Assembly: GCA_045837725.1 (NCBI GenBank)
Contig: JBEWZL010000184.1
Span: forward strand, 124,001-188,000
Origin: Vermamoeba vermiformis
Lineage: Eukaryota
Reading direction: 5' to 3'
DNA length: 64,000 nucleotides
Of this stretch, positions 7,207-53,846 are shown piece by piece. How positions within the stretch are numbered: position 1 is the stretch's first letter; each line of letters begins with the position of its first letter. The notes beneath the pieces are model-generated. The model saw only the letters and a program-made list of their open reading frames with translations. It did not search any database and had not been told where the DNA came from. Both the position numbers and the translations under genes were made by a program.

Positions 7207-8178
7207 TTAGTTCGCAGTGTTGGGGCCAGCACTACTCGGGCTGTTCTTCAGTTTCTCGGCCAGTTTCTTGCGCATGGCGAGTTCGTGCTCCATCAAGAAC
7301 AAGTGCGCGTCTTCTTTCATCAGCTGCGACACTTCGGGCTTGAAGTCTGCCTCGTCAGGTTCTTCTTCGACTTGGAAGAAGCCAGCGAGATCTGGCTCGT
7401 TGATGACCTGTTCAAACATCTCCGTGTCCGACACCTTGCGGCCAGAGCCAAAGCCCTGCGCGTTCATGTTCAGCAAGATGTCAAAGCCACCGAGAATCGC
7501 CGCACCGAGCAGACCGTTCTTCAACATGGCACGAGGTCCTCTGCGCATCGTGGACACCGCACCCGTGAGGAAACCAGCGGTGGCGTGATTGATGGTGTCG
7601 TCCACGCCTCGAATGCCGCCCAAAAAGCAGTCGAACACGGGGTACAAGAAGCCCCACAGACCAAAACTCATCGCTGTCTTCAGGCCTTTGCGCTTGCACG
7701 CGTACCAACTGGAGAGATATAAATAGCGCCACTTGTAGGAGCGCGGATATCTGATAGAATACTGTTAATCAGTGCTATTATAATGCTGCGAATTGAACTG
7801 AAATTTGAAATATTGGTGCAGATCTGGTGGTGAATTCAACGATAAATATTAATTAAATTCTAAAAAATACAAGGTATTATATACTTAATTGCATTTATAT
7901 ACAATTTCACCGCACCATAATATTCAATTATTTAAAATAATTACAACTAAAGCAGCATGTCACCGCGCATCCGTTACTTACTTCCCCCCAAAGCTGCGTT
8001 CTTCTTTAAGTAATCGCCGCGATGTCCTCCGAAAAGCTTTGCCACCGTGCCACGCAAAGCCAGCAATCATGCCCATAGTGAATGCGCTGCCAAAGTCGCT
8101 GTAGATCTTGTCAGGACACTCTTCACCGCCCTCCAAGACCTCTTCCAATGCCTCAAAGCCAGTCTCGTCTTCACCCAT
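7207..8178 (-). CDS. Tim17/Tim22/Tim23-family mitochondrial inner-membrane translocase (Tim17-like)
   Basis: ECPDKIYSDFGSAFTMG, SFGLWGFLYPVFDC, IRGVDDTINHATAGFLTG (PRAT-like motif). One intron ~7752-7983. Confidence 0.8.
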
Positions 8179-8363
8179 TGTTGATCGCTGCTAGTGTGAG
8201 TCTCAACACGCGTGAGTTGTGTTGTTGCGATCGCGCTGATCTGTTCAACTGCCTGCACGGTCAGTACACGACTAAGAAATGAGGAACAACGCGTGAGAAC
8301 CGAAGTGATACAATATCGTCTTTGTTATATATACAAGTGAGCTATAATACAGGCAGTGGTGGG

Positions 8364-9297
8364 CTATTTCTTCTTGTCTTTCTTCATCTTGGCCGCGCAG
8401 TCAGGACAGTACCACTTGCCCTTCACTGGACCACTCAGCCCCACGCACTCGAAGTGGAACCATTCAATCGCGCACTCGGGGTTGTCGCAGCCAATCATCT
8501 CGCCGAACGACACTCGGCCGCACGTGCAGTAAGTAGGCTCGTTCGGATCGATCGGCATCTCAACTTCAGCGCCGAGAGGCACGCCATTGACGCCTAGTGG
8601 TCCGCGAACATCACCCGCTGACTTTTGATCCCTATTGCGAGGCATATTAGTGCTGCGTAACAAGACAGATCTGCCGCGTACTTCTTGCGCGGTACTTTGC
8701 CGAGTCCAGGGCCCTGTGCTGCGAGCTTCTTGCCGCCAGTAGACTTGAGTGTTTGCGACTGCACTTGTTGCTGCTGCTTTCTCTCGTCTTCGAGCTCAGC
8801 TTCAAACTTCTTCAAATCCTGATCCAAGCGACGGATGTGTTTGTCAACCTAGAAGCAGTCAGATAGAGTATCGCAGTGCAGTCTATTCACTACTACGCAC
8901 CAAATCATATGTCTGCACTGCAAGCGACACTTTTTCATCGCAGTGCGACACGCAGTTCTCGAGCTCTTCGCGCATCTGCTGAATTTGCTCGTCGGTAAAT
9001 AATTCTTTTAAATTCTTCTTATTGCCCGATTGATAGGCGACCATCATTTCTTCTACGCGTGTTGACGTTTCTATATTTTATTTGTAAGAATTTGAGATCT
9101 AAAATTTGAAGTTAATCGAATTGATTCACCGTGCCTTTAGTTCTGTCGTCCAATTCGCGCATCAAACTGAAGTTGCGACGCAATTCAGCTGGCAGCGTGG
9201 AGATGCCTGTGAGAGTGCGCTATTGTTAGTCGACGAGCTCGCATGCACAAAAGCGAGCTTGCTTACTCTCGAGGTAGTTCTCTAAATACGTGCTCAT
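8364..9297 (-). CDS. ING-family PHD finger protein
   Basis: Begins [29 protein letters not shown]. Contains [21 protein letters not shown] and PHD finger [36 protein letters not shown]. Confidence 0.93.
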
Positions 9298-9596
9298 AGT
9301 AGAGTTGATACTACGCAGTGGTCTATGTTATTCGGCTCAGCTAATTATTACAGGCTGTTTTTCATCGTTCCCGCGTTTTATTTCAAAAACGGCTAACTGA
9401 TATGCGAACTCAGTGCAACTAATTGACGACACTAGGACTGATAGGTACGAAGGGTATTTCCGACCACCTCACGTTCTACTCACACAACAAGGCTTTAAGT
9501 GGAATAATGTGTGCAGGGGATGTGATCTGGATTCACTCACTCACGCCCAGCACGCATCACATGCATTTATTGTATATGGTAGTAGTAGTATGGTGC

Positions 9597-11546
9597 CTAC
9601 AGTCCCTGACGCAGCTGCTCCAAGTAGAGTTCGCTGCACAGTGCGGGGGTCTTGAGCACGGCGCGGTACTCGCACTTGGCGGGCTCGTCGACCAGCACCA
9701 ATTCATTCGCGCGGCCGCACTGCATCTCCACGCGCAGCGAGCGATTGGGTCCGTTCCAGCATCGATCACCGCTCGAGAAGTTCATTGCACTGTACTGGGC
9801 CTCAAAGCCGTCCCACTTGCTGCGATTGGTCAGTTGTGGTGACACGTGTCAAACAGCGACTTACCCCAAGTTGGTGTGGCTGTGACCATTCGCATTGCGC
9901 TGCGACGCCTTCTCCCAGGGCTTCACTTCGTAGACGTATCTGTGACACGTGTCAGTGAGTGCACTCTGCGCGGAGGTGAGCGAATGACACTTACTCCTTG
10001 TTGCGGAACTCGAGTGTGCTCTTGTAGAGTCCAAAGAACTCGCCGTGGTGTCCGAGATCGAGTTCACTGAACTTGTTCAGCTCGTCCAGCTCGCTCTTCA
10101 CGCGATCACGCTCTTTCTTCGCGGCATTCAGCGCTTCTTCGGCCTTCTCTTTCTCTGCACGGAGGGGTCAGTACGCAGATCACGTGGGTGCGGAATAATA
10201 ACACATCAACCTGATTTCAATGGAGAAAATGACTGCAGAATGGAATTGAAAGCGGATCTGACCCCACTCAGCAACTGCTCTGCTGCCAACTGTGAATAGG
10301 CTGTGCGTGCATAGGCCAGGGGTCAGTCACGTGACTTACCGAATTTGGAAGGCTGCACAGACTCGTGCTGATTGACGCGCTCCTCGACGAGTTGCTTGAC
10401 CTTGTTCTCGCGCTCACGGGCCTCATTCACTTGCGCACGAGCCACACGTGCAATGCGCTCCTCGTCAGTCTCGTCGTCTGGCACTGTCTCGCTGCCCTCC
10501 TCCGCACTCACTGTCGCACCCACTTCACTCTCCACCGCACTCTGCACCTCACTCTCGACCAGGGCACGCTGGCTCTGGTACTCGCTGTCTGCGGCAGAGT
10601 GCTTGGCGGCGAGTTCAATCACGTGCTGTTCGAGGCTCGCGTGCTCGGCGGTGAGGGCACTCAACTTGCGCTGGTTCTCGGTCTGTTGCGCGCGATACGA
10701 CTCGATCCACTCGCTGCGCACGCGCATGCCTTCTTCGGCCTCGGCGAGCACTCCGCGCTGACACGTGATCAGTGCATGCACCACACGACTCGCTGACACT
10801 TACCAACTGCGCGGCACGTGCTTCAGCTTCAGCGGCACAGGTGTTGGGACAGTTGATTGCCTTATTAGGTAATTGCACCAATTCATCGCCACTCTTGCTG
10901 AGCCACTCGTCGCTGCCATCACAACAGTCTGCGAGAGGTGTCAGCTGGCACTACAGCTCATATATATGTGATATAGAGCGCTATACTATAGCTCATTACA
11001 CGTACCGCAAATGCCGTCGTTCACCCACGAGCTCGGCACAGATTTGCCGCGCGAGCCTGGATTGGCGCAGTAGAAGTGGCCGTTGTAACACGCAGCGGTG
11101 CCTGTACGATGAACGGTTACTAAATATGGCAATGCAGTCACGTGACTTACCAGGCTCATCACTGCCGTCCTCGCAGTCGCAGTAGTCGTCATTCACCCAG
11201 CTGATGGGGATGGTCTTGGCTGATTTGAACCAGCCACCGCTCTGACGACAAGAGAATGTCTCGCCAGTATAGTGCTTGTGATCTGCGTGGTCTGTGTTAG
11301 GCACATCCAGTTCAAGTGGTGACGTCATTAAATATTTGAGGAATAATTATCTTAAATTATAATTATCTTAAATTTGACTCGCAATAGCAATGTAAGGTAG
11401 AAACTGACTAGGGTGATATAAATATATATACAATATAGTAAAATAGTAGTTAAGCGCTGCATACCTTCAGGAGGCACACCAAAAGTTGGATGGAGAGCTA
11501 GGGCCACAGAGAGCAATGCACAGCTGAGAATGAACAGCTTGAACAT
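9597..11546 (-). CDS. PRKCSH: Glucosidase II beta subunit (PRKCSH/80K-H)
   Basis: Signal peptide, then [38 protein letters not shown], a coiled coil, and an MRH domain ([28 protein letters not shown]). Confidence 0.92.
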
Positions 11547-11758
11547 GTCTAATGATGATGTCTATTATATATATATAATGTTGGATACTAGTGTCACTAA
11601 TACACTAGAGTTACTAAGCAGTGTTGTTCAGTGTCTTTGGCACTTAATCACTGCCCCTCGAAACACGCTGTTATTGTCAGTCACACGCGTGCACCAACAA
11701 CACAGCTAGCACTGATAGACACACAGTAGTGTCATATACATATATCGGACAGAGCACA

Positions 11759-14136
11759 ATGAGTCGAGGCACCAAGAGGACGCGTGACGAAGCAGATGTA
11801 GCAGAGGACGATGACTTTGGCCCTCCTCGTCCCAGCGAGGGCGACGAGACTAGCGACACCAATAACAACAACACTACTACTGATGCGAGTGAAGCACAGC
11901 CCAAGAAGAAGCAGAAGATTGTCAAGTTTGAGAAGTTGTATTTGGATCTGCTGCCGAGTGCCGAGCTGTACGAGCGCAGCTATATGCACCGCGATGTAGT
12001 GTCGCACATTGTGGTCACTAAGACGGACTTTATTATCACAGCTAGTGTGGATGGACACGTCAAGTTCTGGAAGAAACAGCCGCTCGGGATCGAGTTCGTC
12101 AAACACTTCTTATCGCACACAGGTATGCATATTAATAGCACCCATATTATTATAATGCTCTCTGTATTATTGGCTGCGCAGTCGAGTGCCGTACCGCAAC
12201 GAAACTCTCGATCCACTGCCCTCCACAAAAATAATTCAGAAAATTGCAGCAATAACTCGCGCACTATCCAGCAATAATATGTGTCCTACAATAGGACTGA
12301 AATAATAATTACAATGCAGGGGAGTGGATCTGAGAAAATTCTTTGCTCATTCAATTCACTGAATTATTCGTTCACTGAAACTAATCTCGCCTTAATCTCG
12401 CAGCACCAGTCACAGGCCTCGCAGCGAGTACAGATGGTCTATTTTTAGCCTCGGCTGCCAAGGACAAGACACTCAAGGTGTATGACGTCATCAACTTCGG
12501 TACGCACTGCTGTCACGTGACAGGTGTCAGGGACTGATCTTTATTACCAAATTTAGACATGATCAACATGCTGCGCGTGCCCTTCACGCCGAGCACGTGC
12601 GAGTGGATTCACAAGCGCGGGGCCATGCGACCGCTGCTGGCAGTGTAAGTGCCTGTTTGACACGTGTCATCGACTGACTCGCGTGACAGGGGCGACAAAG
12701 ACAGCGGAACAATTCGCGTGTACGACGGCAGTGGCGTGGACAAAGACGAGCAGGGCTTCAATGTTCCGCAGCACGTGATCAGTCTGCACAAAGCGAGTGT
12801 CGTGCAGATGAAATTCAATGAAATCTACGACACGTGTCTCTCGATCGATGCGCGCGGCATGGTCGAGTACTGGTCACCTGCGGAACAATTCGGACTGCCA
12901 CGTGCCATCACCTTCCAATTTAAGACCGAGACCGATTTGTATCACTTTGCCAAGGTGAGTCAGTGACAGGTGTCAAACTGCGTGTTGCAACTAATCACGT
13001 GACAATATTTGCAGAACAAGTCAGTGCCACTCTCCCTCGCCTTCAGCCCTGATGGACGTCAATTTGCAGTCATTACGATCGATCGACAGGTGATCGTGTT
13101 CAATTTCCTTTCTGGGAAGTTGTCGCGTGTCTACGACGAGTCGCTGGCAGTGGTGACAGCGAGTCAGAAAGAGGGCGCGGAAAATCTAAAAATAGATCCG
13201 ATTGACTTTGGTCGTCGCATGGCGGTGGAACATCAGCTCGACAAGGGCTGGACTGATGGCACTGTGCCACCGCCCAGTCTCCTGTTTGACACTTCGAGCA
13301 ATTTCCTAATTTATCCCACCATGCTGGGCATCAAAGTGGTCAATGTGCACACCAATCAGCTGCGTCACGTGCTCGGCAAGTCCGAGTCGGAGCGCTACAC
13401 GGTGCTGGCACTCTACCAGGGCAAGACCACGGGCTCTGCGGCACTCGGCACACTCGCGGTCAATGCCGAGCACGATCCCACCATCTTTGCAGCTGCGTTC
13501 AAGAAACACCGCTTCTACATGTTCACGCGCCGCGACCCCGACACGGGTGTGGACGGCGATCAGTCACGTGACGTGTTCAATGAACGGCCGACCAAGGACG
13601 AACAGGCCTCCATCCCCGCGCACAAACAGCGCTCGAACAAATTGGCACGCCGCGCAGTGCTGCACACGACCCTGGGCGACATTCACCTCGCGCTGTTTGC
13701 AGATGACACGCCCAAGACCGTCGAGAACTTCACAGTGCATTCCAAAAATGGTTATTACAACGGCGTCATCTTCCACCGCGTGATCCGTGGATTCATGATC
13801 CAGACGGGAGATCCGCTGGGTGATGGCACTGGTGGCACGAGTATCTGGGGCGGAGATTTCGAAGACGAATTCGTGCCGCACTTGAAGCACGATGTGCCGG
13901 GCACGGTGTCGATGGCCAATGCGTCCAAGCCCGACACGAATGGCAGTCAGTTCTTCATCACCACCGTGCCCACGCCGCACCTCGATCAGCGCCACACCGT
14001 GTTTGGACGCGTGACACGTGGCATGGATGTCGTGACAGCCATTGAGCGCACCAAGACTGATCGACGCACGGAAAAACCATTTACGGACATCAAGATACTA
14101 AATATAGAAGTGCTGTTCGATGACGCACCGAAATAA
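11759..14136 (+). CDS. PPWD1: WD40-repeat cyclophilin (spliceosomal PPIase)
   Basis: [32 protein letters not shown], and a cyclophilin domain ([38 protein letters not shown]). Confidence 0.95.
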
Positions 14137-14212
14137 ACACGTTGCCTAATTAGTACCGAATGACACGTCACCACTATTTATTTACAACAGCTGCTCCTAT
14201 ACTACACTGCAC

Positions 14213-17200
14213 TCATTGTGCGAGGCCAGGCAAGTGTGCCACCATCGCTGCGCGCAGATCTGCATCGTCCTCGCACGCACCGCGCAGCACTGCAGCACGT
14301 GCTGTCACCACGTGACTCGGGGGTTGTTCCGCGAGCTGTTTGTGCGACAGTAGTGGCTCGTGATCGGTCCAAAAATAGAACACGTCTTGCACGACACGTG
14401 ACAGTGGTCGCTGGGATTTAATCCAGTGACTCCACAACTGCTGTCGCGACCACTCGTCGCCCAGGGCTGCGGAGAACACTCCGAGAGTCACGTGGCGGAC
14501 CAGGGCCCAATACAGATCGGAATTTCGCAATTCTTCAGTGACTTGCGGTGCAGCTAGCCACGTCATGGCACTTTTGACACGTGTCACAGTGAGGTCTCCA
14601 ACGAGTGCGTACAGCGGTCGAGTCACGTGACTGATCAGGGTGGTCCAGGCTGTGGCCAGTGTTGACCATATTTGGTTCGCACACTGCGCAGGAAGTGCTG
14701 TCAACAACCACGTGGCCAGGGCCTGTCCTCCAGCACCCTCTGACAGCCAAATCTCCGCAATATCTCCGAGCTTGGCTGCGGTGGTCGGTCCTGCGCTGTC
14801 GAGAGCCAAATCTCCCCTTGCGGAGATCGTTCTGATCACGTGCGCGGCCATGCTGTCAATGACTGGATCGGCGCAGATCTGTGGTCCGAGCAAGAACAGT
14901 CGACCGAGCTCTAAAAATAGCACGTCTGCGGGGTATTGTGCAAAGTCTATATTAAGTGCAAAGGTTAATGCTGTCTCAATAAATAACTGCAAAGACTTAC
15001 AGTGCGCGTTGTGTATCGACAAGAAGCACGTGACGCGAATGTATTGCTGCACAAAGTGTTGCACAAATTCTTGCAATAATTGCTCGCGTTCCGTGCTGTC
15101 CTCGCTCTCGTTCAGTGAACGGTGTGCGTAGTGCAGGGGCCAGAACAGCCACGTGCCGTTGAGTGGCAGCACGCTCTTGTCAAGCGCGATCACGTGCGTC
15201 AACTGGCCACGTGTCACAAAGTCACGTGTCAAAGTGAATGCGCGACTCTCCGTGTCAGCTGTCACCTGCGTGTCAACGGGCAGCTCGTACGGATTGAGCA
15301 CCATCCCAAAATAGAAGTCAATGAACTCCACGAGACTGTCGCGGTGCTGATCGAGTTGTGACATGATGACGTGTTGTTCACTGAATGCTGATTTCACTGA
15401 AAGGGACTCTGTGCGGCGGGACAAATCGTCAATCACGTGATCACGTGTCATCAGGTACACTTGACGGTTGAGAATCACGTGCTCGAACATTTCCAAAACA
15501 AGCAATTCATCGCCAGGCAGCAGCTGATCTACTGCGCGCATTGCCAAAGAAGGAAGTTGTTTCATGAACGAGAGATCGGTCGAGATCTGTTGGCGATGCA
15601 CCATATTTAGCAACATCACCAGGGACTGCGCTAGTCGTCTGCTCGGCACGTGCGTGAATAACTTGGGCAAAGTCTTCTTGTCCAGGGCCTTGCCAAATTT
15701 GGTAGTGAACGGCAATCGATCGTTGGTGTCGAGCAGTGTCACGAGCAGCTGTTGAAAGCTTTGCACGAGTGTTGCGTCTAAAAATAGCAACACGTTCTTG
15801 GCCTGCACTTCATCGAGCAGCTGATTGTAGTCTTCGATCAGGGCCATTACCATATATAGTAATCGCGTCACAGCGAGCACCGAGTTCTGCGCGGCGATGG
15901 AGGTCGAGGTTTGACAGCTCCATGTCAAGCAGGGCAATGTTTGCAGCCACACTGAGCCACGCAACTCGTCGGAATTACTCAGCTGCGTCACGTGTGCCAG
16001 TGACTCGCGGAATAACTTTGACTGGGTGAGGGGCGCGACATATTTGGCAATCACGTGACTGAGCTGCTGCACAGCTACTTGCACGTGTGTCACGTGATCT
16101 TCAGGCAGTTGTTTGAGGTGCTTAAAATAGCTGCTCAAAAAGTGCAAAATTGCCGCAACGGCTGTCACGTGCTCGCGAATACTTGCAAAGTCTGACTTGT
16201 TGCTGTCCACAGCTGTCAACAAACTGTCAAGTGCCAGCAGACTGGGCTGAAACAGATTCGACACGTGACTCCAGTGCAGGACGGGGCCCTGGGAGATTTC
16301 GCTGCCCTGATCGGTCGATGTGGTGGCACTGTTCACCACGGCTATTTCGAGCAGTCCTTCCAGCGCTAAAAATAGTGCAGTAGTGACGCGTGCAGGATCG
16401 CGAGCCAGAATTTCCTTTTTTGTCTGCAGATGTGTGATGTGCTCGATGATCACGTGATAGATGTCTAAAAATAGCTCGGAGGTCAGTCCGTACCGCACGC
16501 ACGTGTGCCACAGTCGCAAAGTCTGCACGGTGAGGGCCGGCAGCGACGCGTGCTGCAACAGATCACGTGGAGGGCGTACAAAATAGGCAATCACCAGCGG
16601 AAGAATTCCTTGCGCAGATTTGTTGAGATCTTCGTCGTCTGCGCGCGGGTCAGTCTCGCCTTCCTGATTTAGTAATAGCGGGGAAGCAGGGAGCAGACCC
16701 AAGAATCGTTGACAGGTGTCAAGTGACGACGCGCAACACAGCTGCAATAACTGCAAAGCTTTCGGGTGTGGTCTGTACGGCGTGTCATCGCGTGTCACAC
16801 TCTGATTGACGTGCACAAAGTCACGTGTGATGACGTGCAGCAGACGAGGGCACTAAAAATAGCACTGGTCAGTGATCGATCGGCGGAATAATTGACACTT
16901 ACGCTGAGCACGTGATTGACACCTGTCTCCGAGTGACGGGCCGCAGCGAGACAGAGATCTAAAATTAGCTCCACAATCACGTGGCTCTGCGGTCGCATCA
17001 CTTCGAGCACGTATCTGACACGTGTCAACAGCCCTGTTTGCAGCACTGCTGTCATCACGTCGCGCTGACTCAGTTCCAAATCGGTCAATTGTTCCGCTTC
17101 ACCGTCCTCTGTCACGCCGACCACGTGCTCGGAGATCAGGGGCCAGATACACGCTCCGTGCCACGTGGTTGCAATCTCGTCGTAGATCTCCGCGTCACGT

Positions 17201-18496
17201 GCGTTCACTAACAGCGCGTGCAGGGCGCGAAGGGCGTCACTGACCAGGGCTTCAGGGCCTTCATCCAGAGCTCGGCGCACCAAAAGAGGCAATTTGTGCT
17301 CAATGGCCCAGGTCAGTACTTCCGCGGCTTGTGATTGGTCCGCGCTCTGTTTCCAATTTTGGAGAATGTTTGCCACCACGTGCACTGCCAGCGCGCGCTG
17401 CTTTTTGACAGTTGATGACATGAGGTGCAACAATTCTTGCAAAGTATACCCTGGTAGCTCGGGCTGATCTCCGTGGTGATACAGACTCGGATCGTATTGT
17501 TCCGCACTGGCACTTGTCACGCGATGGCCTGCAAAATCATAGCGCCAGTGTGCAGGACGCGAAGTGACATCTGTCATTGAGGTGTCAGCAGTGACAGGTG
17601 TCATCCACTGTGTTTTTTCGCGCTCTAATTGTTCCGCTGTCAATGGCTCGTCCTGGTCGATGTTTGACACGACAGGTGTCAATGTGTCACGCGTGTCATA
17701 AACGAATCCTTTGTTCGCGAGATCGATCACCTCATGCGGATTGACACGTGTCATTGGCGTGTTCGGGCTGGCCTCTTGTTTTTCCAAATTAGGCAACTTG
17801 TTCATGCGTGCTGCACCGCGTTGTTTGAGTCGCGCGACTAATTTTGGATCGATCGAGCTGAATATCTCCTGCTGCATCTCACTGATCTCCGCGGCACTCA
17901 GATTGCCTAATTTGGCAGTGTTCTCAGCATCGACCTCTGCTAACAAATCTGCATTGTTGTTCGGTGCGGTACTCGCAGTGACACCTGTCATTCGTGCGGG
18001 TTGCGGTTTGACACGTTTCAAGTTGAGTTCAGAGCGGTGTTTGACAGGCGGGAATGCCGTGCTGCGCGGAGGTGGCGGAGTGACAGGTGTCAAGACTTGA
18101 TCTCGCTCCACAATCTGCGTCATCACGTGACTGATGTGTCGATCACCAACTGACGCACGGTTAGTGACATTGGTTCAGTGAACGGTGCTGGCACTCACCT
18201 CGCATGCGATGTGCCACGTCATCGTCGTCATCGCGGTCACGTGACTGTTTGAACAGCGATTTCTTTTTTTGGACATTGACTGCTTGACGCGACAGATCTG
18301 GCGTGGTCTGCGGCAACTGACCAATGCGCACGACGTCCTTTTCGACTGCGCTGATTGGCTCGGAGTCTTTGCTAGAATTCGCGGGGCTATTTTTGACCGC
18401 GCTCTTGTTCACGCGCACCACTTGCGCTGCGGGTGCTTTGCCGCTGCGGAGAAACTCTTCCTGCAATGCCGCGACATTAGTAGTGTTGTGCTGCAT
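14213..18496 (-). CDS. RPAP1: RNA polymerase II-associated protein 1 (RPAP1/Rba50/IYO)
   Basis: LQEEFL..GKAPAAQVVR, the RPAP1_N motif EVDAENTAKLGNLSAAEISEMQQEI, and the RPAP1_C motif YHHGDQPELPGYTLQELLHLMSSTV..QR. Introns near 18145-18199 and 16853-16902. Confidence 0.88.
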
Positions 18497-18966
18497 ATTA
18501 ATGCGATTGGCTCGAATAGATATATGCATATAAACATATATATTGGTGCTTTCACAATTTAGCGTGCAGATCGCGATCGGACCACAAACTAATTATCTTA
18601 GCAAGACTCGTGCAATAGTTATGGCAATAATTTCAAAATAAATCGGTGATATTAATATAGCGTCATATTGTCGCTAATTCAGTCGCTTACTTGTTGCTGG
18701 ATCAAGTCCTCCGTGTCTTCGGCTTCAAATAATGACTTGCGTTCCATGGCACTCGTTCACTATAGATTATTGCAACTAACACTACAATCAAGTGTTCTAT
18801 TGTGGTGTTCTCGTTCAGATCTGTTGCAAACTATTCTAGGCCCCCACGTGCTTTTTTTTTGCAAGCACGAAAATTTCACGCGAAGTTGCAAAATTATTTG
18901 AAGGCGTGTTGCGAGCACAGTCATAATTGAGTGGCTGTATTTGCTTGCTATGTAATATTGCCCAAG

Positions 18967-21826
18967 ATGATGGAAGGTTGGAATCAATTGACCGATCGAT
19001 ATTATCGCAAAAAAGATGTATATGAATTGGGCTGGCAAGGCGTTGACTTCAATAAATTAAAGCTCGTTGGTGCACCATATGGCGGACCTGTTGGTACAGT
19101 ATTTAGCTTATTATAACACAATATTGTTGTTGGAGAATATTCCATTTAATAATCAAAAATCGAATTAAATTAGTTACAGCTCGTAGTAATACCTACATTA
19201 ACAATATTATTATGCAGCTCTTATGCGAGATAATTCAAAAATGTTAATGGTCAAGGAGACCAATCTGAGCCCTGTTATTGACATCTACACCTCTTCTGGC
19301 AACAAATTAGGCTCTATTTTGGTAAATATATATGGCACATGCTATCTATACATATTATTCACTCGTCTGACACAATCTACTCGACTAAAGGTTGATCAGA
19401 AGCGGATGCCGATTGTCAAAATGGGTTGGAGCGATGACGAGCGTTTGATTATCATCACCGAGTACGTACATGCACCACTCTATATAACCAAGTACTCATA
19501 GCACCCCAGGGACGGCATGTTGTACCAGTACAATGTGTTTGGCCAGCTGCTCAACAAGTTCATCATTGACGGCGTAAGTCATGCCCATAAAGCTCATATT
19601 AGTGACTCATACATGCACTGCAGGAGTGTCAAAAGGGTGTATATGACTGCTACATATTCCCCACAGGTGCCGTGGTCATGTCGCGCAGCTACAAGCTGTT
19701 CCTCATCCACAACTGGGATCAGATCAAAGTCCTCAAGCTGCGCGATGCCAATTTGACCGAAGCACCGCGCTGCTGGACTGTCATTGAACCGCAAGTCTCG
19801 GTGAGCAGTCAAGGCCAGGTTACTACAGTCTGGTCGAGTGCTGACGGCGAGCCCAGTGTGGATGTGCTGCTCGCCCTCGACTCGGGCACGGTGCTCGTTG
19901 TGTCGCGCGACGAGGCCACAGACATGGCCATCACGAATGGACCGTTCTTGAAGATGACAGTCAGTCCCACGGGCAAGATCTTGGCGTGTTTCAATGCGCG
20001 CGGTGACGTGTGGGTGGTGACGACGGACTTCAATTCAAATCTCTCCACATTTGCCACCAAGAGTCCGCAGGCCCCTACACAGCTCGTGTGGTGCGGTCCC
20101 GATGCAGTGGTGTGTTACTGGAGTGGTGGCGAGGACAACATCTTGTTTCTGATTGGTCCGCGCACCGACAAAGACAACTGGCTCAAGTTCAGCTACGACG
20201 AGCCCATTCAACTGGTCTCCGAGCCCGATGGACTCAGAATCTTCTCGCCCACGCAGTGCGAGTTCTTGCAGCGCGTGCCCAATGTGGTGGAGAGTGTGTT
20301 GAAGATGGGCAGCACGAGTCCTGGCGCCATGTTGTTGGCCGCGTGGGAGTGGTTTCAGAAGAAGAGCGCCAAGGCTGATGACACGCTGCGTCACGACATT
20401 AAACAGGACTTGGGCCAGGCTGTCGATCACTGCATTGAAGCTGCTGCACACGAATTCGATCCCGCCATGCAGCGCAAGCTCTTGAAAGCAGCAGCATATG
20501 GCAAGGCCTTCATTGACGAGTACAACAGCGACTTTTTTGTCGAGATCTGCCGCACTCTGCGCGTGTTGAATGGCGTGCGCTACTTTGAGATTGGCATGCC
20601 ACTGACTTACACGCAGTACAAGTTGATGGGCACTAGTCTGCTCATTGATCGATTATTGGCACGGCATCATCACCTCTTGGCGTACAAGATCTGCGACTAC
20701 CTGCATCTGCCTTCGGACCGAGTTCTCATCCACTGGGCTATTGCTAAGGTGCAATCATCTACCAATGACGAACAAACTGCGAAGGAGATTGTTAAGAAGC
20801 TCAAATCTCATACTGGAATTTCATTCGCCGAGATCGCATCTGCTGCGCATCGAAAGAACAAAACAGCGCTCGCCACTATGCTACTGGACTACGAGCCTCG
20901 ACCAGCAGATCAAGTGCCACTGCTCCTGTCTATGCGCCAGTACGAAGCAGCGCTGCTCAAGTCCTTACAGAGCGGTGACACAGATCTGGTGCACCTCGTT
21001 TTAGTTCAGCTGCGCGGTCAATTAGCTGCGAGTGAATTGATGCACCTCATTGGCAAATATGATACTGCCTTGGCATTGTATATTAAGAGCTGCAAGGACC
21101 ACGACAAAGAGCGCGACAAGCTGCGCGAACTCTACACATTGCAACAGCGACCAGATCTGCTTGCTGGACTGCTCGTACGCGAGGCTTATCAGCATCCAGT
21201 ACGTATACTAATATTCTATTATTGTTGTTAACATGTTCTGCCATTAGGACCTTGAAGCACGTCGCGAGAGATTGCATCAAGCGATGAACCAGTACAAGAA
21301 GGTAGATCCGACAGCCGCCAAGGCCACAGAAGAGCAAATCGGTCTATTACTGTTGCAGAAGGAGCTAGAAGTATCATTGGGTGGTAAATTCGTTGGCTCG
21401 TCACTCAGCAACACGCTGTACCGTCTGATCTTGATGGGCGAGCACAAGCGCGTACTCAAAATCAAGAACGAGTTCAAAGTGCCCGACAAGCGCTATTGGT
21501 GGCTGCGTATTAAAGCACTAGCAGAGGCGCACGAGTGGACGGAGCTCGAACAGTTCTCCAAAGAAAAGAAGTCGCCGATCGGTTACGCGCCGTTTGCTGA
21601 AGTCTGCTTGCAGGCCAACAAGCTCGATGAAGCTACTAAATATGTGCGCAAGATCACCGAACCTGATCAACGTGCACGATATTGGGCTCGATTGGGCCAG
21701 TGGAGCGAGGCTGTCGCTGCTGCTCGTGAAGCACGCGATCCAAATCTGTTGATTTATCTTCGCAACAGATGTCCTGACCCAGCACTCGTGGCGAATATTG
21801 ACCAGCTACTACAGCAACAGAAATAA
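18967..21826 (+). CDS. VPS16: Vacuolar protein sorting 16 (HOPS/CORVET core)
   Basis: YYRKKDVYELGW, GAPYGGP, CIEAAAHEF, QRKLLKAAAYGK, LRVLNGVR..IGMPLT, SGDTDLV, FKVPDKRYWW and KKSPIGYAPF. Confidence 0.95.
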
Positions 21827-21970: not shown

Positions 21971-22547
21971 ATGGAGCCTAAAAAGCGCGGCAGACCTCCT
22001 AAGTACGTGCGTGCAAATCTTTAATGGTTATCTCTTATTTATTACTGGCGATAATTATGAATGCAATAATAATTAATAATACATTGATGTTTTAGTTATT
22101 AATCATTATTGTGGCAGAAAGAATTATTAATTCTGCCCTTAAATTAAATGAGATCTCTTTTCTCTTAGGCACAAGAACAAAGAGAGCCCCACAAGCATAA
22201 TTAGCGGCAATAACAACAATACTAATGTCAATAATAAGAATCCAAAGACAATCATTCCACCCAGATCAGCCAAAACAGCGCCACCAGGCTACTACAAATG
22301 CAAGCACAAGCACTGCCACGCGTACTGCGAGAACCAAGACATACTTCGCCGTCACGAAGAGGACTTCAAATATCATCGCCGACACTACCAAGAGCTCGGC
22401 GACAATTGCAGGATCTGTTTGCAACTCGCGACGCAGTTACTCTGGCAGCGCATTATTTCATACCGCGAATTGACTGCGCTGTCACGTGACTTGTTGAAGC
22501 TCGTGGAGACCACGCGCAACACCCCTCCGACATTGAGCGAGCAATAA
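21971..22547 (+). CDS. Small (~136 aa) AT-hook plus C2H2-like zinc-finger protein; absent from the ORF track
   Basis: Exon 21971-22002 (MEPKKRGRPP), intron gtacgt...ttag 22003-22168, and exon 22169-22547 open to TAA. Contains YKCKHKHC-x12-H-x6-H and CRIC. Confidence 0.7.
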
Positions 22548-22577
22548 AGCATGTACATAGTTGTAGTTTACTCTATC

Positions 22578-25500
22578 TTACACGGCATTGACGGTGAGTT
22601 CGGAGCCCAACACGGCCTCGCGATCGCGCTGCATGTGCACATTGATCGTGCCTGCAATCGATATACCGCGACTGAGCTCGGTGACGTGCGTGATCACGAA
22701 CACTTTGCGCAGTCTGCTGGCGAGTGAGACGAGCACTTGTTGCACTTGCAGCTGACCAGTGCGATCGAGGGCATCGAACACTTCGTCGAGCATCAGGTAC
22801 TGCGGCTGATAGCGCGATCTGTTGCGCACGAGTTCGAACAGCGAGAACAGCACTGCGAGGTCCGTTCTCTTGCGCTCACCACCGCTGCGCTTGACGTACA
22901 CTTCTTCGAGCTCGAGTTCGGGGGTCAGTGTCACTGTCACTTTGCCACTGTCCGACAGCTGATCGGCATAGCTGTCCAGCACGAGATTCAGCTCTTGCAC
23001 CAGATCTGCAAAGATGAAGGAGCGCACAGTCTCAAAGCCCATGGTGCTCTTCGTGTTCTTGTCGAACGCCACTTCCCAGAACCGCGCCATGCTGTACTGC
23101 TCGGACACGTGACTGTGCTCTGCTGTCACGGCTGTCAACTGTTCGTTCAGTTGTGTGACACGTGCCTCGTGCTGCGCGATGGTCGCTGTTAGTTGATCAA
23201 TCTCCGCGGCGAGATAGTGCAATCTCCTGTCGAGATCACTGGTCTCCACCACGAGTTGGTTCTGATAGCGCAGCAGTTCGTGTTCCTTGTCTGCCAGTGC
23301 GCGCTCGACTCCTTTGATCTGTTCACTCAGTTCGAGTCGTCGTTTCATCGCTTGCACTTCCGTGCGCTCCAGCACTTCAATATCTCGCTCGATATCTCCG
23401 CGCAATTGTTGCAATATTTTGAACAGATCTGCAGAGCTACGCGTCGTGTCATGCACACCAGTGACACGTGTCAAAAACGCGTGATTTTCTTCGAGCAGTT
23501 TGGCGTGATGTGATTCGTCAATTGGTCGGCCACAGCGCGGACAATTCTTCTCGTCCAATGAGTACTCGTGCATGTGATTCAGACGCACCACTAACTCGTC
23601 GCGGAGTTGTTTCCACTCGTTCACTGAACGGCCGTTGATCACAGACGGAGTGTCACTGGCCTGTGCATTAAGATCATTTTGCCGCAATTCGATGGCACTC
23701 TTTTGCTGCGCGAGCTGTTCAATCTGCCGCTCGAGATCTTTGCGCGCATCTTCACGTCCCTCCACACGATTGCTCCTCTCTTGTTCCACTGCTTGGCGAT
23801 CAGCAGTCTTTGCACCAATTTTTTCATTAGTGTTCTTAATAGCCATATTTAGTGCCTTCAACTCTTGTTGCAGTGCAGTCTGTGTTTGCATCAATTCATT
23901 GAGCCGTGCCTCGAGTTCATTGCGCTTGTTTTTTGCGGTCTCAAAGTACGCATTGAACTTGTCGAGGCCCAGTGTCTCTTCAATAATGCTGCGCCGCTGA
24001 TCTTTGTTGCCCGACACAAAGTTGCTGACAATGTTCTGCCCGAGCACGACTGACTTGGTGAAGGTCTCGTAGTCAATGCCCAACAGCTCGTTGAGCACTT
24101 TCTGCGTCTGACTCAGCTCACCCTTCTCATTCTCCGCGAGGTACTCGGGCTCTGCATCGTCTGCGTGTCGTTGATAGGTGCGCAACACATCTGCTTTGCC
24201 GCGCTTGCGAGTGCGTTCGATGATGAAGCCGTTGTCGTACTCGAGCACCACACTGCACTCCCTGGCCTCGTCGTTGATGCAGTAGTCCTTCGCCATGCCA
24301 CTGCGCAAGAAGCCCCCGAACTGACACCACACTGCGTACATTGGTCAATAGTGCTGCTGTACATACAGTGCTGTAGTGAGTCCTACCTAGTGCCTCAAAG
24401 ATCTGACTCTTGCCGCTGCCATTCGCGCCTTCAATGATCCAAATGCCGTCGTTCATGTTCTTGAAGTCCAGGTGCACTGTGCCCTGCACGCCCATGAAGT
24501 CAGTGATGGTCAGACTGCTCAGTGTGCCGTCGAATGCCTTGCCCTCGTGCTTGTCAATGCTCTGCACGCGCGAGTCAGCCACGAGACTCTTGCCTAATTC
24601 GGTCAATGCGGCAATCTTGTCCTTGTTGTCCAACAGTCCTTCAAATCTCAGGCCCGACTTCTTCTTGCGACTTTGAGCCTCGACAAATGTCGTGTGCACG
24701 TGATTGGTGAATTCTTCGAGCAAATCATCAATTTTCTTGCTCTGCTGACTGGTGATGGCAGAATCAGTGCCCGGATTTTTGATGGCATCGACAATCTGCA
24801 CATCTTTTTTCACACCCAACACACCGAGCTCGAGCAATTCATCGACGAGTGTTTGATGTTGCTGTGGTGTGACAAACAGGTCCTCGTATTGTACCATGAG
24901 AAAGGTGTCTTTGTACTGCGCAATGTTCTGTTTGACGCGCTCAATCTCCGAGTACTTGACTTTGAAGTACTGATCGCCGTGTGGATTTTTGATGAATTCA
25001 ATCTGATCTGTCTCTGTGTCGTAGATCACTGTCACGGTGGTTAGTAGCGCACTTCACGACTCAGTTCTCAACGTACCAATGCCGCGGTCTTGTTCCGCAT
25101 CACCAAAGTTGAACTGCACTGGTGCTCCGACATAGACTACTTTATCTAGTAAGTGGTGGGCGTGAAAGTGTCCCTAAATTGACACGTGTCACTTGCAGTG
25201 TTCAAAACAAATGTCAGACAATTGACGTACCGAGAACGTTCTCTTGAGCGGATTGAACGCATCAGGACCAATGGGGCCCTTGTATCGCGAGCTAGAACTG
25301 TTTTGAATAGCTCCATTGATGGCTAAGTGTCCAAAGCCTATTGTCTTGGCCAACAACTTCTTTTTGCGCTTTTTAATGAGCTCTTCAATCTTGCCGACTA
25401 TTTCTGTTTGATCTTCGTGCTAACGGCACCATAGTTATTAATGATAGACTAGTGATGGACAACATACATAGGGCATCATGAGGCAGGAGACACCTTTGAC

Positions 25501-26315
25501 AGATGTCAATGTGAGGTCGCGATGTAATTGCACGAATTGATGGCGCAGCAGACTGTTCATGCTGAGTGCATCGAGCGACGAGATTTTAGAGGAGTGACGC
25601 CTGTCATATATGAACACATTAGTCTTGCACTCTCGTTGATGTCTGCACGCACAAATTCATGTCGTGATTGCCGAGTATGACGTGAATAGGCACGACTTTG
25701 TTCTCATCGATTGCCTGGCCCTTGCGCGCCTCTTTCAACACCTCTTCGTTCAACACCGCATTCATCTTGTCGAAGAACGACAGCGCTGAAGATAAGGACC
25801 GCACACTCACTACTTCGCGCGTGTTGAGCACATCTGCTTCGCAAATAATGAGTACTGCAGCTTGCGTATTCATATTGCTAACCTCCTAAGCACACTACCG
25901 CATCGACTTTGCGCTGCTTGAACTGCTCGATAATCCTGACCAAGGCGTGAGCACGAAGCTATTTAACCCTTTAGACCACACTTACCAGTCACCTGTCGTT
26001 GTAATGCGCTCGAGGCCTTTGTCTTGGAAATGTATATCACCAAACAGGCCTATTGTTGCATAAGAGCGGTACTGACGGGAAACTTTGGCTCGCTTAGCGT
26101 GTTCTTTTGCAGATCTCTGAATTCACAAGTCAAATTAATTGACTGTTCGACACAGTAATTTTTAAAAAATCTAACAATCTTATGCAATGATATACATGCG
26201 TGCAATAAATGCCTGGAATTACAGGGTTATTTAAATAAAAGATTTCTAAGGATCGCGATCCAGTTTGACATTTCTCAAGTCTCCTTACCACAGCACGAAT
26301 AGTTTGCCGAAGCAT
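22578..26315 (-). CDS. Fused Mre11/SbcD-like metallophosphoesterase and Rad50/SbcC-like ABC ATPase (gp47-gp46 type)
   Basis: Spliced model. Nuclease motifs: GDIH, LGD, GNHD, GHL, SGHFH, YVGAPVQFNFGD. ATPase motifs: Walker A GANGSGKS, Q-loop VVLGQ, coiled coil with CPRC hook, signature SGGERKR, Walker B/D-loop LMLDEVFDALD, VITH. First exon less certain. Confidence 0.88.
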
Positions 26316-41825: not shown

Positions 41826-44445
41826 ATGTTGCGTACTGCTTGTGTTCAACTCGGCAAAACTCTTTCGCGCCGTGTCACCAACAGCGGCAGATCCCTTTCC
41901 ACGATCGCCGGACGAAAACACTCTGCTGTCGTGAGAAAACCCCTCCAAAATGCCACCAGTGTATTTTCCTATGCCGTAAGTTCGTTATCATAATTTTACC
42001 GTCATAGCAATCCGATGCAGTATTGGATCGGACTTTTTTTCTGTTATTTTCAAAATTAAGAAAGAGTGCCGCCAATTATTTAAATAAATAATATTTATGT
42101 GACAATTCCCTGAGTAATATTAAATAGGCAACTAACTCATTTCTGATCTCTCAGTTTGGCCAATCCAGTCGCAGACTTATGTCAACGGACAAACCTGACG
42201 CATTCAACTTGGACGAGCTCACAAAGAAAATTGAAGAGATGAAGAACGCCGGTCAATCCCCAGATGCAGCCCTCGAAGAGATGTACGTTAAGTCACGTGC
42301 AAATGTTTGCAGTCCTTTGTCTAACTTAATTACACAGCTTGAAAAACGAGAAGGTCAATGTTGCTCAAGAGGAAGCCATGGAGAAAGAAGAGAAGGTCGA
42401 GGACGTCCTCATCCAAGAGAACGAGAAGCAAACAGGCGAGGCTAGCAAGCTCGAATTCCAAGCTGAGACTCGCAAGTTGCTCGATATCGTCGCTCGCTCA
42501 TTGTACACTGACAAAGAAGTCTTCGTGCGTGAAATTATTTCGAACGCATCTGATGCTTTGGAGAAAGTTCGTCACCGCGAAATGATGAAGGAAGCCGTCG
42601 CTGAGCCCGACACCACCCTCGAGGTCAAGATCTCTGTCGACGAGGCCAAGAACACCTTCATCATTCAGGACAGTGGCATTGGTATGACCAAGGAAGAGTT
42701 GCAAAAGCACTTGGGTCGCATTGGTTACTCGGGAACTGGCGAGTTTTTGAAGCTGATGGAAGGCGGTGCTAACAACAATATGATTGGTCAATTCGGTGTT
42801 GGTTTCTACTCCGTCTTCATGGTCGCGCACACTGTCAGAGTGTACACGCGTTCTGCTGCTGACCCTAATGCCAAGGGCTACATTTGGACCTCAGACGGCA
42901 CTGGCAGCTACACTATTGCTGAAGCCGACGGTGTTGCCCGTGGTACCAAGATTGTTCTTGAATTGCGCGAAGGCAACCACGAGTTTGCTAAGAAGCAATC
43001 TGTCGAGAACATCGTCAAGAAGTACTCGAACTTTGTTGGCTTCCCCATCTCTCTCAACGGCAAGCGCATCAACAATATTAAGGCCTTGTGGACTATGAAC
43101 AAGGACCGCATCACTCCTGAGGAGCACAAAGAGTTCTACCAAGTACGTACAACTTTACAAAGCAATTCGTTAATGCCATTCTAACTTCTATTTGCAGTTC
43201 ATCTCTCATTCATACGACTCACCCATGTACACTATTATGTACTCCACTGACAGTCCCATCAACATTCGCAGTTTGTTCTACGTCCCTGAACAACACATGG
43301 AACGCTACGGAGTTAGACTCGAGCCTGGTGTTTCACTCTTCTGCCGCAAGGTTTTGATTCAACAGAAGGCTAAAGGTCTCTTGCCCGAATGGTTGCGCTT
43401 CGTTAAGGGTAAGTTATCATGCGGCATACGAGTGCCTGGAGTTCAGTGTTGTTGCAACGTACTAACGTCCATGACAGGTGTCGTTGACAGCGAAGACATT
43501 CCTTTGAACTTGTCCCGTGAACATCTCCAAGACAGCACTCTCATCAAGAGATTGAGCGCTAGCATCACTCGTCGATTGATCAAGTACTTCGACGACGAGT
43601 CCAATGCTGATCCTCAAAAATACGAAAAGTTCTTCCGTGAATTCGGCGTGTTCCTCAAAGAAGGTGTTTGCACTGACGCCAAGTTCAAAGAAGACATTGC
43701 CAAGTTGTTGCGCATGGAGTCTTCAACTAACAAGGCCAATGAATTGACCTCACTCGACAAATACATCGAGCGCATGCCCAAGGAACAAAAGGACATCTAT
43801 TTCTTAGTCACACCTACTCGCCAATTGGCTGAGTCTAGCCCTTACTTTGAGGCCTTCAAAGAGAACGGCATTGAAGTCTTGTTCATGTACACTGACATTG
43901 ATGACTTCGTCATGGCCAATCTCCAGACCTACAAGGACAAGCGCGTCGTTACCATCGAGTCTGCTGAAGCCGGTGCTGCTATTAACCAAATCAAGAAGGA
44001 GAAGAAGGACGAGAAGAAGGATGAGGAGAAGAAGGACGAGACAGTCGCTGCCTTGACCACTGAGCAGTTCAAGGACTTCGCTAAATGGATGAAAGAAGTG
44101 CTCGTCACTCGTGTCAGCAGTGTCACTGACACCACTCGCTTGTCATCTTCACCCGCTGTTATCATTGACCACGAGTCCATGGCCTTCCGCCGTACTATGC
44201 GCAAGATGGACCCTCTCAACACTCCTGCCTTGCCCAAACAACAATTGCAAGTCAACATTAAGCACCCGATCATTGTCAAGCTCAACCAAGTGCGCAACAC
44301 TGATGCTCAACTCGCGAAGGAGATTGCTGAACAAGTCTTCGACAACGCTTTGATCCAAGCTGGTCTGTTGGACGAAGGTCGATCAATGATTCCTCGTCTG
44401 CAGAAATTGATGGAAATCTCATTGGACACCAAGGCCCAAAAATAA
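41826..44445 (+). CDS. TRAP1: Mitochondrial HSP90 (TRAP1/HSP75)
   Basis: Arg-rich presequence, EFQAETRKLLDIVARSLY, REIISNASDALEK, IGQFGVGFYS and GVVDSEDIPLNLSRE. No C-terminal MEEVD. Confidence 0.93.
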
Positions 44446-45281: not shown

Positions 45282-45369
45282 CGCTGAGAAGGAGGAATTG
45301 AACCCCTACCACTCTCGTGGTCTACGGATTTGAAGTCCGCACCTGTCACCAGACAAAGCTCATCCCAGC
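45282..45369 (-). tRNA. tRNA-Sec (anticodon UCA)
   Basis: GCTGGGATG...CTTCTCAGC-G with a 9-bp acceptor stem, 6-bp D-stem around TGGT, TGCGGA-CTTCAAA-TCCGTA anticodon arm, long variable arm with GAGA loop, 4-bp T-stem with TTCAATT loop, and G73. A T8 terminator follows at 45271-45278. Confidence 0.93.
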
Positions 45370-53615: not shown

Positions 53616-53846
53616 GTTTAATTGTTGTTATGTATTGTATTAGTAACTTGAATAACGCAACAAGCCAGTTTTGTGCGTATTTGTATTCGGACCAATCCCG
53701 TTCAAGCAAGGAGATTTCAAATAAACAGAGAAAATTTGACTGTCAAAACTATGAATATCCACCCAAAACCGCGCTCCTTCTTTGCTTGGACTGGCTAAAA
53801 TAGTTTATCGGCTTTTTATTTGAATATCACCGGTACTAATTTTAGA

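Follow-up and report, generated by a model that had tools for sequence, protein, structure and literature searches.

Results

AT-rich decamers in the exons of PPWD1 and RPAP1

Why should the exons of GC-rich housekeeping genes carry, over and over, AT-rich decamers of the kind bound by MADS-domain proteins? The question is raised by a 64,000-nucleotide stretch of the Vermamoeba vermiformis genome (contig JBEWZL010000184.1, positions 124,001 to 188,000; the whole stretch is called the window below, and its first letter is position 1), in which orthologues of PPWD1 and RPAP1 lie as a convergent pair with 77 bp between their stop codons. An initial annotation had noted MEF2-type decamers, CTA(A/T)4TAG, and SRF-type decamers, CC(A/T)6GG, together with hybrids of the two, and had proposed a multi-factor binding platform. 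The results below point to a code at the level of the DNA that overlies that of the proteins; the decamers are neither codon bias, repeat nor chance, and they are very probably words under selection as DNA sequence.

The MEF2-type decamer occurs 10 times in the window, nine times within 12439-16968 and once at 53836; the SRF-type occurs 13 times, with seven copies within 10860-17915. Every site of the initial annotation was present at its position (nine MEF2-type, five SRF-type with a further one at 10860, and four hybrids); the SRF-type site at 13742, within the annotated range, had been overlooked, and two more hybrids were found at 11120 and 15850. Between 10860 and 17915 the 10-bp CArG-box consensus is matched by 9 CTA(W)4TAG, 7 CC(W)6GG and 6 hybrid decamers (W, A or T; Table 1). 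The inclusive family C[CT]W6[AG]G has 40 members in the window, 24 of which lie in 12405-18460, a density of around 1 per 250 bp over 6 kb. Placement in exons, as annotated, holds for 21 of these 24; each of the other three makes up the final 10 nt of an intron, as seen for 12547 and 14947 in reads or contigs that are spliced, and for 16853 from an intron at 16853-16902 that was inferred from GT..AG, the reading frame and stop codons. The identical word CTAAAAATAG makes up six of the nine MEF2-type sites and the seventh, at 12439, is its reverse complement; read in the sense of their own gene, six of the nine are CTATTTTTAG.

These counts were compared to three null models. In 100 dinucleotide shuffles of the window the MEF2-type occurred 0.50 times on average and at most 4 times, compared to the 10 observed, and the SRF-type 2.11 times, compared to 13. 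An order-2 Markov simulation fitted to each 1-kb piece gave, for 12405-18460, 0.00 MEF2-type, 0.14 SRF-type and 0.30 family sites where 9, 6 and 24 are observed; in the AT-richer 25601-64000 it gave 9.8 family sites where 12 are observed. Expectations of high-order Markov models were uninformative, since these overfit. Synonymous codons were also shuffled within each gene over 5,553 exonic nt taken from PPWD1 and RPAP1 (1000 shuffles), keeping the proteins and the codon usage per gene. The shuffles contained 0.04 MEF2-type sites (8 observed), 0.59 SRF-type sites (6 observed), 0.45 hybrids (4 observed) and 1.39 family members (21 observed); none reached the observed number except, for the hybrids, one of the 1000. 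Chance and base composition are ruled out by these tests. The initial annotation, which had called the decamers unexpected and had named a shuffled null as the check, was right about a non-random motif class and understated its excess.

Family sites are found in all three reading frames (12/3/6, compared to 0.46/0.41/0.53 in the shuffles) and encode around 17 different peptides (LFL, LKI, LNI, LIL, SKNG, QIW, KFG, QNW, PNL, KLG and others), which rules out peptide repeats. The sense strand of the exonic sites is A-rich in 10 cases, T-rich in 10 and equal in one. In the cyclophilin domain of PPWD1, rare synonymous codons spell the words at residues shared with the human protein (HSKNGYY with TCC AAA AAT GGT, ILNI with CTA AAT ATA), yet TpA is otherwise strongly avoided; its observed/expected ratio is lowest, at 0.41, in 12405-18460. 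Runs of A/T-ending codons are no more clustered than in the synonymous shuffles (267 runs of at least 2, compared to 257.5; 88 of at least 3, compared to 95.6; 32 of at least 4, compared to 35.4); therefore the words are not rare-codon clusters, and codon bias, dismissed in the initial annotation, is excluded both by this test and by the shuffle counts. The same annotation had dismissed a simple repeat, and indeed similarity between copies stops at about 16 nt: the best repeat family comprises 7 copies of 16 nt, 81-94% alike, with the decamer at their centre region, a search for longer units found none, and a repeat or mobile element was rejected. Also rejected were a contrast from a CpG island or from methylation decay, because observed/expected CpG is 0.86-1.12 in all blocks and so offers no such contrast, and a special TpA context of the kind left by repeat-induced point mutation, since contexts were shifted solely by the words themselves.

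A flank rule and a single word family

In the only test here that is free of motif choice, all A/T runs were listed and their flanking bases scored. Runs of 6, 7 and 8 bp in 12405-18460 are flanked by C...G in 12/14, 10/14 and 11/12 cases, 33/40 together, compared to around 26% for W-runs of 6-8 bp elsewhere in the window (binomial p 1e-13); shorter runs of that interval, 1-5 bp long, have such flanks in 8-38% of cases. In the exons alone 28/32 runs of 6-8 bp are so flanked, compared to 6.8/24.3 in the synonymous shuffles, where the maximum was 14. The number of AT-rich patches is nearly normal, and almost all have the shape C-W8-G, CC-W6-GG or an intermediate. Since the runs of 6-8 bp are mostly C...G-flanked when compared to the shuffles, AT-rich patches appear to have been sculpted rather than multiplied.

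The cores are also distinctive. An A-tract of at least 4 (AnTm, with no TpA step) is present in 33 of the 39 C-W6-8-G sites in 9601-18460 where 25.9 are expected, a modest excess (p 0.01); among the remaining W6-8 runs of the window 69% have one. Outside the decamer, the flanks of 52 half-sites have C at -1 in 0/52 and T at -2 in 25/52 (chi-square p 1e-4 to 2e-2), figures to which coding constraints and the seven copies of one word may contribute.

The optimum of MEF2 and Rlm1 is CTA(A/T)4TAG. The initial annotation had counted the MEF2 and SRF types apart, but the sites do not behave as two classes: hybrids are roughly as frequent as pure forms, and sites that are orthologous swap subtype, with TAG and TGG exchanged at 16474 and 15610 between the window and the related locus described below. 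Since two shared sites have swapped subtype, the decamers are best regarded as interchangeable, and C-Y-W6-R-G as one family (Y, C or T; R, A or G) fits better than MEF2 and SRF classes side by side. CArG boxes are defined in the available part of PMC10178880 as SRF-type CC(A/T)6GG and N10/MEF2-type C(A/T)8G; the same part states that MADS proteins favour A-tract cores and that recognition is largely shape readout of A-tracts.

Constraint on the words in a relative

A 4.5-kb metagenome contig, L001, carries the 5' two-thirds of an orthologous RPAP1 at 82% nucleotide identity; its alignment takes in 14 of the 24 family sites, all of them in RPAP1. Third codon positions are identical at 39/42 sites in words, compared to 555/845 outside any word (Fisher p 8e-5) and 105/138 in other AT-rich patches (p 0.016); in strict MEF2/SRF sites they are identical at 24/25. 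Mismatches fall at 9/140 word positions, compared to 609/3131 overall (p 1e-5). Family membership is kept for 8 of the 14 window sites, and 8 of the 10 sites in L001 are shared. A reading of no extra conservation, taken from whole-decamer counts, was overturned by these per-site tests.

The relative shows the same association of words. Its RPAP1 part has 10 family sites (0.33 expected), 16/20 W6-8 runs flanked by C..G and 19 CACGTG (3.1 expected); the 1450 bp upstream of RPAP1 have 0 family sites, 7/23 runs so flanked and 0 CACGTG. The co-occurrence of the words and CACGTG thus ends at the same gene boundary. Scans of viral and prokaryote genomes with the RPAP1 protein gave no relative, and the metagenome scan gave this one locus. 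Relatives with 84-89% protein identity were also seen, on contigs as long as 530 kb.

CACGTG and other words in the same domain

The E-box CACGTG peaks where the decamers peak, as the initial annotation had it: 58 of the 78 copies in the window lie in 9843-18845, with around 1 per 125 bp in PPWD1 and RPAP1. By reading frame the copies number 22/15/6, compared to 14.5/1.9/0.8 expected, and the density in introns equals that in exons. In the 879-codon frame of RPAP1 they force 18 His-Val dipeptides where around 3 are expected. In L001, 17 of 24 alignable copies are kept, compared to 36% for any hexamer. Most copies are part of longer palindromes, TTGACA[CG]GTGTCAA and AGTCACGTGACT, and RT stands before CAC in 46 of 114 E-box half-sites. 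CACGTG, TGACA/TGTCA or CArG-like words cover around 14% of the bases in 12405-18460; the neighbouring genes PDS5 and VPS16, of the same G+C at third codon positions (GC3), have no such word enrichment.

The palindrome (T)TGACA[CG]GTGTCA(A), of 12-14 bp, has 18 copies in the window, five of them within short introns and eight in RPAP1 exons, where several encode xTxVx peptides. An 11-bp palindrome, GTTCA(N)TGAAC or near forms, and the word (G)CGGAACAAT also recur, most copies of both lying inside the word-rich domain. Two weaker E-box-rich segments were seen. In 9601-11400 there are 2 family sites (0.17 expected); in 22001-25600, a Rad50/SMC-like gene, there is one (CArG-like, at 23843; 0.23 expected), with 6 CACGTG (1.6 expected), two TGACACGTGTCA and one GTTCACTGAAC. 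The 12-mers TGACACGTGTCA and TGACAGGTGTCA appeared in the literature, among the matches listed, in primer or motif lists only, and a limited literature search found no published description of such a word-rich domain.

The initial annotation had suggested a look at spacing or periodicity relative to the E-boxes; here the outcome was negative. The nearest E-box lies a median of 46 bp from a word, where random placement gives 42 bp, and none of the offsets is recurrent. A composite element with the E-boxes was rejected on these grounds, and because no distance is preferred the co-localisation is one of the domain as a whole.

Two 45-nt introns, one in the PRKCSH-like gene and one in PPWD1 (9820-9864 and 12645-12689), are 92% alike over their first 25 nt, GTAAGT..CTGTTTGACACGTGTCA, and several other introns begin GTAAGTGTCA; the likeness of the two could stem from the spread of intron sequence or from convergence.

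Discussion

We tentatively propose the following as a whole. The MEF2-like, SRF-like and hybrid decamers are best taken as one dyad-symmetric family of double-stranded DNA words, C-Y-A/W-W4-W/T-R-G, which covers CArG boxes of every form between CC(W)6GG and C(W)8G. As the tests above show, synonymous codon choice is the main means by which the words came into PPWD1 and RPAP1, where they occupy exons as well as introns, and less strongly into the PRKCSH-like gene, at whatever peptide can carry them; the signal resides in the DNA and not in protein, codons or one RNA strand, and purifying selection keeps it. The reader would be a sequence-specific dimeric DNA-binding protein, and a MADS-domain protein of the SRF/Mcm1 or MEF2/Rlm1 kind, predicted from the form of the words, is the likeliest, if still an uncertain, candidate. 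Alongside numerous TGACA half-sites and CACGTG at around 1 per 125 bp, the words may make up a factor-dense chromatin domain of around 9 kb containing three expressed genes, with a chromosomal or chromatin-organising role rather than that of an ordinary single-gene enhancer; that the stretch organises chromatin is the more doubtful part of the proposal. Of the multi-factor binding platform of the initial annotation, what stands is a constrained, non-repeat motif class that co-peaks with the E-boxes; two separate classes and a preferred E-box spacing are not borne out. Yeast general regulatory factors that organise chromatin include, in the available part of PMC5880240, Mcm1 (a MADS protein) and Cbf1 (which reads CACGTG), and since both are such factors the pairing of CArG-like words with CACGTG is less arbitrary.

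Several observations weigh against this proposal. The spacing lends no support to cooperation between readers, and coding exons, where 21 of the 24 sites lie, are not the usual place of CArG action. Identity of the whole decamer in L001 is 6/14 for the family, compared to a background of 20% (p 0.047), and only 3/9 for strict MEF2/SRF sites against the same background (p 0.27); at 5 of 14 sites a W/C change in the core breaks the consensus. The evidence comes from one domain and one related locus, which is confined to RPAP1 and lacks phylogenetic independence, and the motif family was recognised post hoc. Furthermore, all 8 coding MEF2-type sites are in one frame, CTA WWW WTA G; of the two alternative frames one is barred by stop codons, the other is permitted yet unused.

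Among the rival explanations the weightiest is a DNA-shape or nucleosome code that has no dedicated reader, followed in order by a mutational or repair drive, by splice-acceptor-like signals and by translational effects. In a shape code, rigid A-tracts bounded by flexible CA/TA steps would phase or exclude nucleosomes in a GC-rich, nucleosome-favouring gene body, and since MADS proteins read the same shape the CArG likeness would be a by-product. The excess of A-tract cores, the independence of strand and frame, the constraint on silent sites and the interchange of subtypes at orthologous sites would all suit such a code, as would the shape readout ascribed to MADS proteins in the part of PMC10178880 already cited. 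It is nonetheless unlikely: the outer C/G and positions -1 to -3 appear strongly dyad-symmetric, with C at -1 wholly absent, which is needless for pure shape, the gaps between sites have no nucleosome-scale period, and PDS5 and VPS16 lack the words at like GC3. A non-functional by-product of local mutation, repair drive or micro-insertion, such as repair biased towards certain words or the spread of short intron-borne sequence, would account for the 25 nt shared at 92% by introns of two genes (9840-9864 and 12645-12669), for the presence of the same words in short introns and exons, for the turnover of sites between the window and L001, for SRF-type, hybrid and MEF2-type forms that are C/T transitions apart at CpA or TpG, and for the regional nature of an effect seen in three adjacent genes. 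Such a drive would, however, have to mimic selection for several unrelated word classes at once in order to yield the excess of identical silent sites in words, and it meets words that lie over conserved residues with no insertions, similarity that ends by about 16 nt and a CpG ratio of around 1 everywhere, with no contrast from methylation decay; we regard it as improbable.

The two remaining explanations place the signal in RNA or in translation. Pre-mRNA signals, U-rich or resembling 3' splice sites (CUAUUUUUAG), which would serve as acceptors of a decoy or alternative kind or be bound by an RNA-binding protein, find some favour in the three sites that end introns, in a commonest sense-oriented word that has the form of a classic pyrimidine tract with AG after it, and in the six MEF2-type sites that read CTATTTTTAG in gene sense. 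They are very improbable in view of a sense strand that is A-rich as often as T-rich, of RNA contigs at around 99% identity that run unspliced through 14911, 16366, 16465 and 17353-17906, and of the loss of the AG in L001 at 16474 (TGG); acceptors account for 3 of the 24 sites, the RNA pieces listed leaving 15693-15850 uncovered. A translational or peptide cause is barely credible. Rare A/T-ending codons (CTA, TTA, ATA, AAA, AAT) might slow the ribosome, off-frame stops might follow slippery T-runs, or LFL-type peptides might recur, and it is true that the coding MEF2-type sites share one frame, that 5 of the 8 encode Leu-Phe-Leu and that the +1 frame of that codon run holds TAG. Against this, runs of A/T-ending codons are not above the shuffles, the family occupies three frames, many peptides and some introns, the C...G flanks have no translational meaning, and LFL elsewhere in RPAP1 is written CTG TTC TTG.

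How does the proposed word family compare to known systems? Bacterial coding DNA holds words such as DNA uptake sequences, Chi and KOPS, and in animals clusters of motifs mark chromosomes, among them the pairing-centre and rex motifs of C. elegans and the MSL recognition elements of Drosophila. Like the words of the window, these are short, over-represented in any frame and tolerated in genes; a DNA-binding protein reads them for a chromosomal function, as is proposed here. They are single motifs spread over genomes or megabases, whereas the window has several palindromic classes in around 9 kb. The CArG boxes of MADS dimers share the 10-bp consensus, including an SRF-MEF2 continuum (PMC10178880, in the part available), as well as A-tract-rich cores and dyad symmetry; in CArG boxes about three bases to either side also add to the motif in a symmetric way, as the flanks of the words may do. 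Known CArG boxes lie singly or in small groups in promoters, enhancers and introns, the non-coding regulatory DNA of their target genes, whereas the sites here are in coding exons of housekeeping genes or, in three cases, at the 3' ends of introns. The combination of a MADS site type with an RTCACGTG-type E-box recalls the chromatin-organising general regulatory factors of yeast (Mcm1, Cbf1, Reb1, Abf1, Rap1; PMC5880240). These factors act at nucleosome-depleted promoters, origins and centromeres; the words of the window form gene-body arrays in an organism that is not a yeast.

The closest parallel in coding DNA is with exonic enhancers or 'duons', transcription-factor sites in coding exons that bias codon choice (as described in the available parts of PMC13216554, PMC4745165, PMC4207465 and PMC6790085). 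As in duons, the signal overlaps codons, skews synonymous choice, as the shuffles of the family and of the C..G-flanked runs both indicate, and adds constraint at silent sites, here in one relative and at 14 of the 24 sites. The duons described are lone, dispersed footprints, whereas here whole genes and their introns are saturated with a few word classes and, unlike in duons, there is a cost to the protein in the excess of His-Val.

On a bolder reading, which we consider rather unlikely, the sequence of 9.8-18.8 kb would itself define a chromosomal landmark, for instance a small centromere, a zone of replication origin or the boundary of a domain. Such a landmark would consist of dense sites for a Cbf1-like basic helix-loop-helix (bHLH) factor (RTCACGTG), a MADS factor (C-Y-W6-R-G) and a reader of TGACA-NN-TGTCA. 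It would lie over three expressed housekeeping genes because hardly any non-coding DNA is left over in a genome this compact, and the codons and even some amino acids of these genes would have been bent to carry it.

If the proposed code is real, whole genes carry a second, selected message at the level of the DNA, preserved between species, that dictates synonymous codons at hundreds of positions and distorts protein sequence, far beyond the scattered exonic factor footprints so far described. The genes would offer a natural system for studying how much non-coding load a coding sequence can bear and the chromosomal function that needs such a load. The words would supply candidate sites at which MADS and bHLH factors of the organism might bind, and analyses of codon usage and dN/dS in such genes would be confounded by selection at the DNA level.

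Features of the window

The window is a gene-dense part of a eukaryotic nuclear genome. Its G+C content is around 0.50 in 1-25 kb and 0.38-0.46 in 26-64 kb, the drop falling at about 25-26 kb. Introns of the region measure 45-60 nt and have the signals GTAAGT...ACTRAC...YAG; RNA contigs that are spliced and agree with the window at around 99%, filed under another organism label (X5), confirm those at 14947-15000, 12955-13014, 18150-18198 and others. RNA-seq runs with the species label of the DNA source (X21-X23) match 8000-20000 of the window at only 90-95%; these reads are shallow and served only two intron joints, and 40 of their 366 differences were listed. Genes and words are collected in Table 1.

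Table 1. Genes, decamers and other recurrent words of the window, with the corresponding word in L001 where there is one
Feature	Position	Strand	Context	L001
PDS5	ends 7115	+	neighbour gene	
Tim17-family gene		-	neighbour gene	
PHD-finger gene		-	neighbour gene	
PRKCSH-like (glucosidase II beta-like) gene	9600..11500 (approximate limits)	-	Pfam match just below cut-off, on exon fragment	
PPWD1 orthologue, WD40 + cyclophilin	11759..14136 (start codon inferred)	+	E 1.5e-116 to human PPWD1	
RPAP1 orthologue, RPAP1_N + RPAP1_C domains	14213..18813 (5' limit from RNA contig)	-		
VPS16		+	neighbour gene	
Word-rich domain	9843..18850		58/78 CACGTG, 13/18 TGACAnnTGTCA, 26/40 C[CT]W6[AG]G of window	
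MEF2-type CTATTTTTAG	12439..12448		PPWD1 exon, CTA TTT TTA G (LFL-A)	
MEF2-type CTAAAAATAG	13186..13195		PPWD1 exon, CTA AAA ATA G (LKI-D)	
MEF2-type CTAAATATAG	14098..14107		PPWD1 last exon, CTA AAT ATA G (LNI-E); human PPWD1-conserved residues (IINI)	
MEF2-type CTAAAAATAG	14911..14920		RPAP1 exon, sense CTA TTT TTA G (LFL-E); unspliced in RNA contig	
MEF2-type	15778..15787		RPAP1 exon (LFL-D)	same word (4096)
MEF2-type	16366..16375		RPAP1 exon (LFL-A)	CTATTTCTAG
MEF2-type	16465..16474		RPAP1 exon (LFL-D)	hybrid CTATTTTTGG
MEF2-type	16853..16862		last 10 nt (...TTTTTAG) of RPAP1 intron	TTATTTTTAG
MEF2-type CTAAAATTAG	16959..16968		RPAP1 exon (LIL-D)	same word (2923)
SRF-type CCTTATTAGG	10860..10869		PRKCSH-like gene; no A-tract	
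SRF-type CCAAAAATGG	13742..13751		PPWD1 cyclophilin domain; TCC AAA AAT GGT over conserved HS(K/R)NGYY	
SRF-type CCATATTTGG	14666..14675		RPAP1 exon (N-Q-I-W)	
SRF-type CCAAATTTGG	15693..15702		RPAP1 exon (T-K-F-G)	CCAAATCTGG
SRF-type CCAATTTTGG	17353..17362		RPAP1 exon (L-Q-N-W)	CCAACATTGG (sense)
SRF-type CCAAATTAGG	17784..17793		RPAP1 exon (P-N-L-E)	CCTAATTCGG (sense)
SRF-type CCTAATTTGG	17906..17915		RPAP1 exon (A-K-L-G)	same word (1985)
Hybrid CTAAATATGG	11120..11129		PRKCSH-like gene	
Hybrid CCAAATTTAG	12547..12556		last 10 nt of PPWD1 intron 12500-12556	
Hybrid CCAAAAATAG	14369..14378		RPAP1 exon (sense F-Y-F-W)	
Hybrid CCATATTTAG	15601..15610		RPAP1 exon (L-N-M-V)	MEF2-type CTAAATTTAG
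Hybrid CCATATATAG	15850..15859		RPAP1 exon (L-Y-M-V)	same word
Hybrid CTAATTTTGG	17838..17847		RPAP1 exon (P-K-L-V)	
Family member CCAATTTAAG	12915..12924		PPWD1 exon	
Family member CTATATTAAG	14947..14956		last 10 nt (sense CTTAATATAG) of RPAP1 intron 14947-15000	
Family member CTTAAAATAG	16121..16130		RPAP1 exon (S-Y-F-K)	same word
Family member CTTTTTTTGG	18263..18272		RPAP1 exon	same word
(T)TGACA[CG]GTGTCA(A)	9840, 9943, 12518, 12658, 12964, 14575, 16710, 17016, 17565, 17592, 17742, 17979, 18081			
(T)TGACA[CG]GTGTCA(A), further copies	376, 23462, 25180, 25497, 56954			
GTTCA(N)TGAAC or near forms	10063, 13576, 15111, 15377, 18174, 23620, 56214		recurrent 11-bp palindrome	
(G)CGGAACAAT	12706, 12882, 17088, 17496, 17628, 57982		recurrent word	

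Viral contigs with TTGACACGTGTCAA were rejected as relatives of the domain, the multi-copy matches being tailed phages unrelated to this eukaryote. Tailed-phage contigs with a lambda-type portal, terminase and S49 protease (L072, L064/L074/L031, which are one contig, L060, L062, L051, L056, L035 and L014) carry the palindrome TTTTGACACGTGTCAAAA every 1-1.5 kb, in several cases immediately before a start codon; this palindrome resembles a promoter or operator word of the phages and is unrelated to the window.

Elsewhere in the window a gene for a TRAP1-type mitochondrial HSP90 lies at 43174-44445, and a selenocysteine tRNA gene was found on the minus strand at 45283-45369 (Rfam RF01852, 68 bits).

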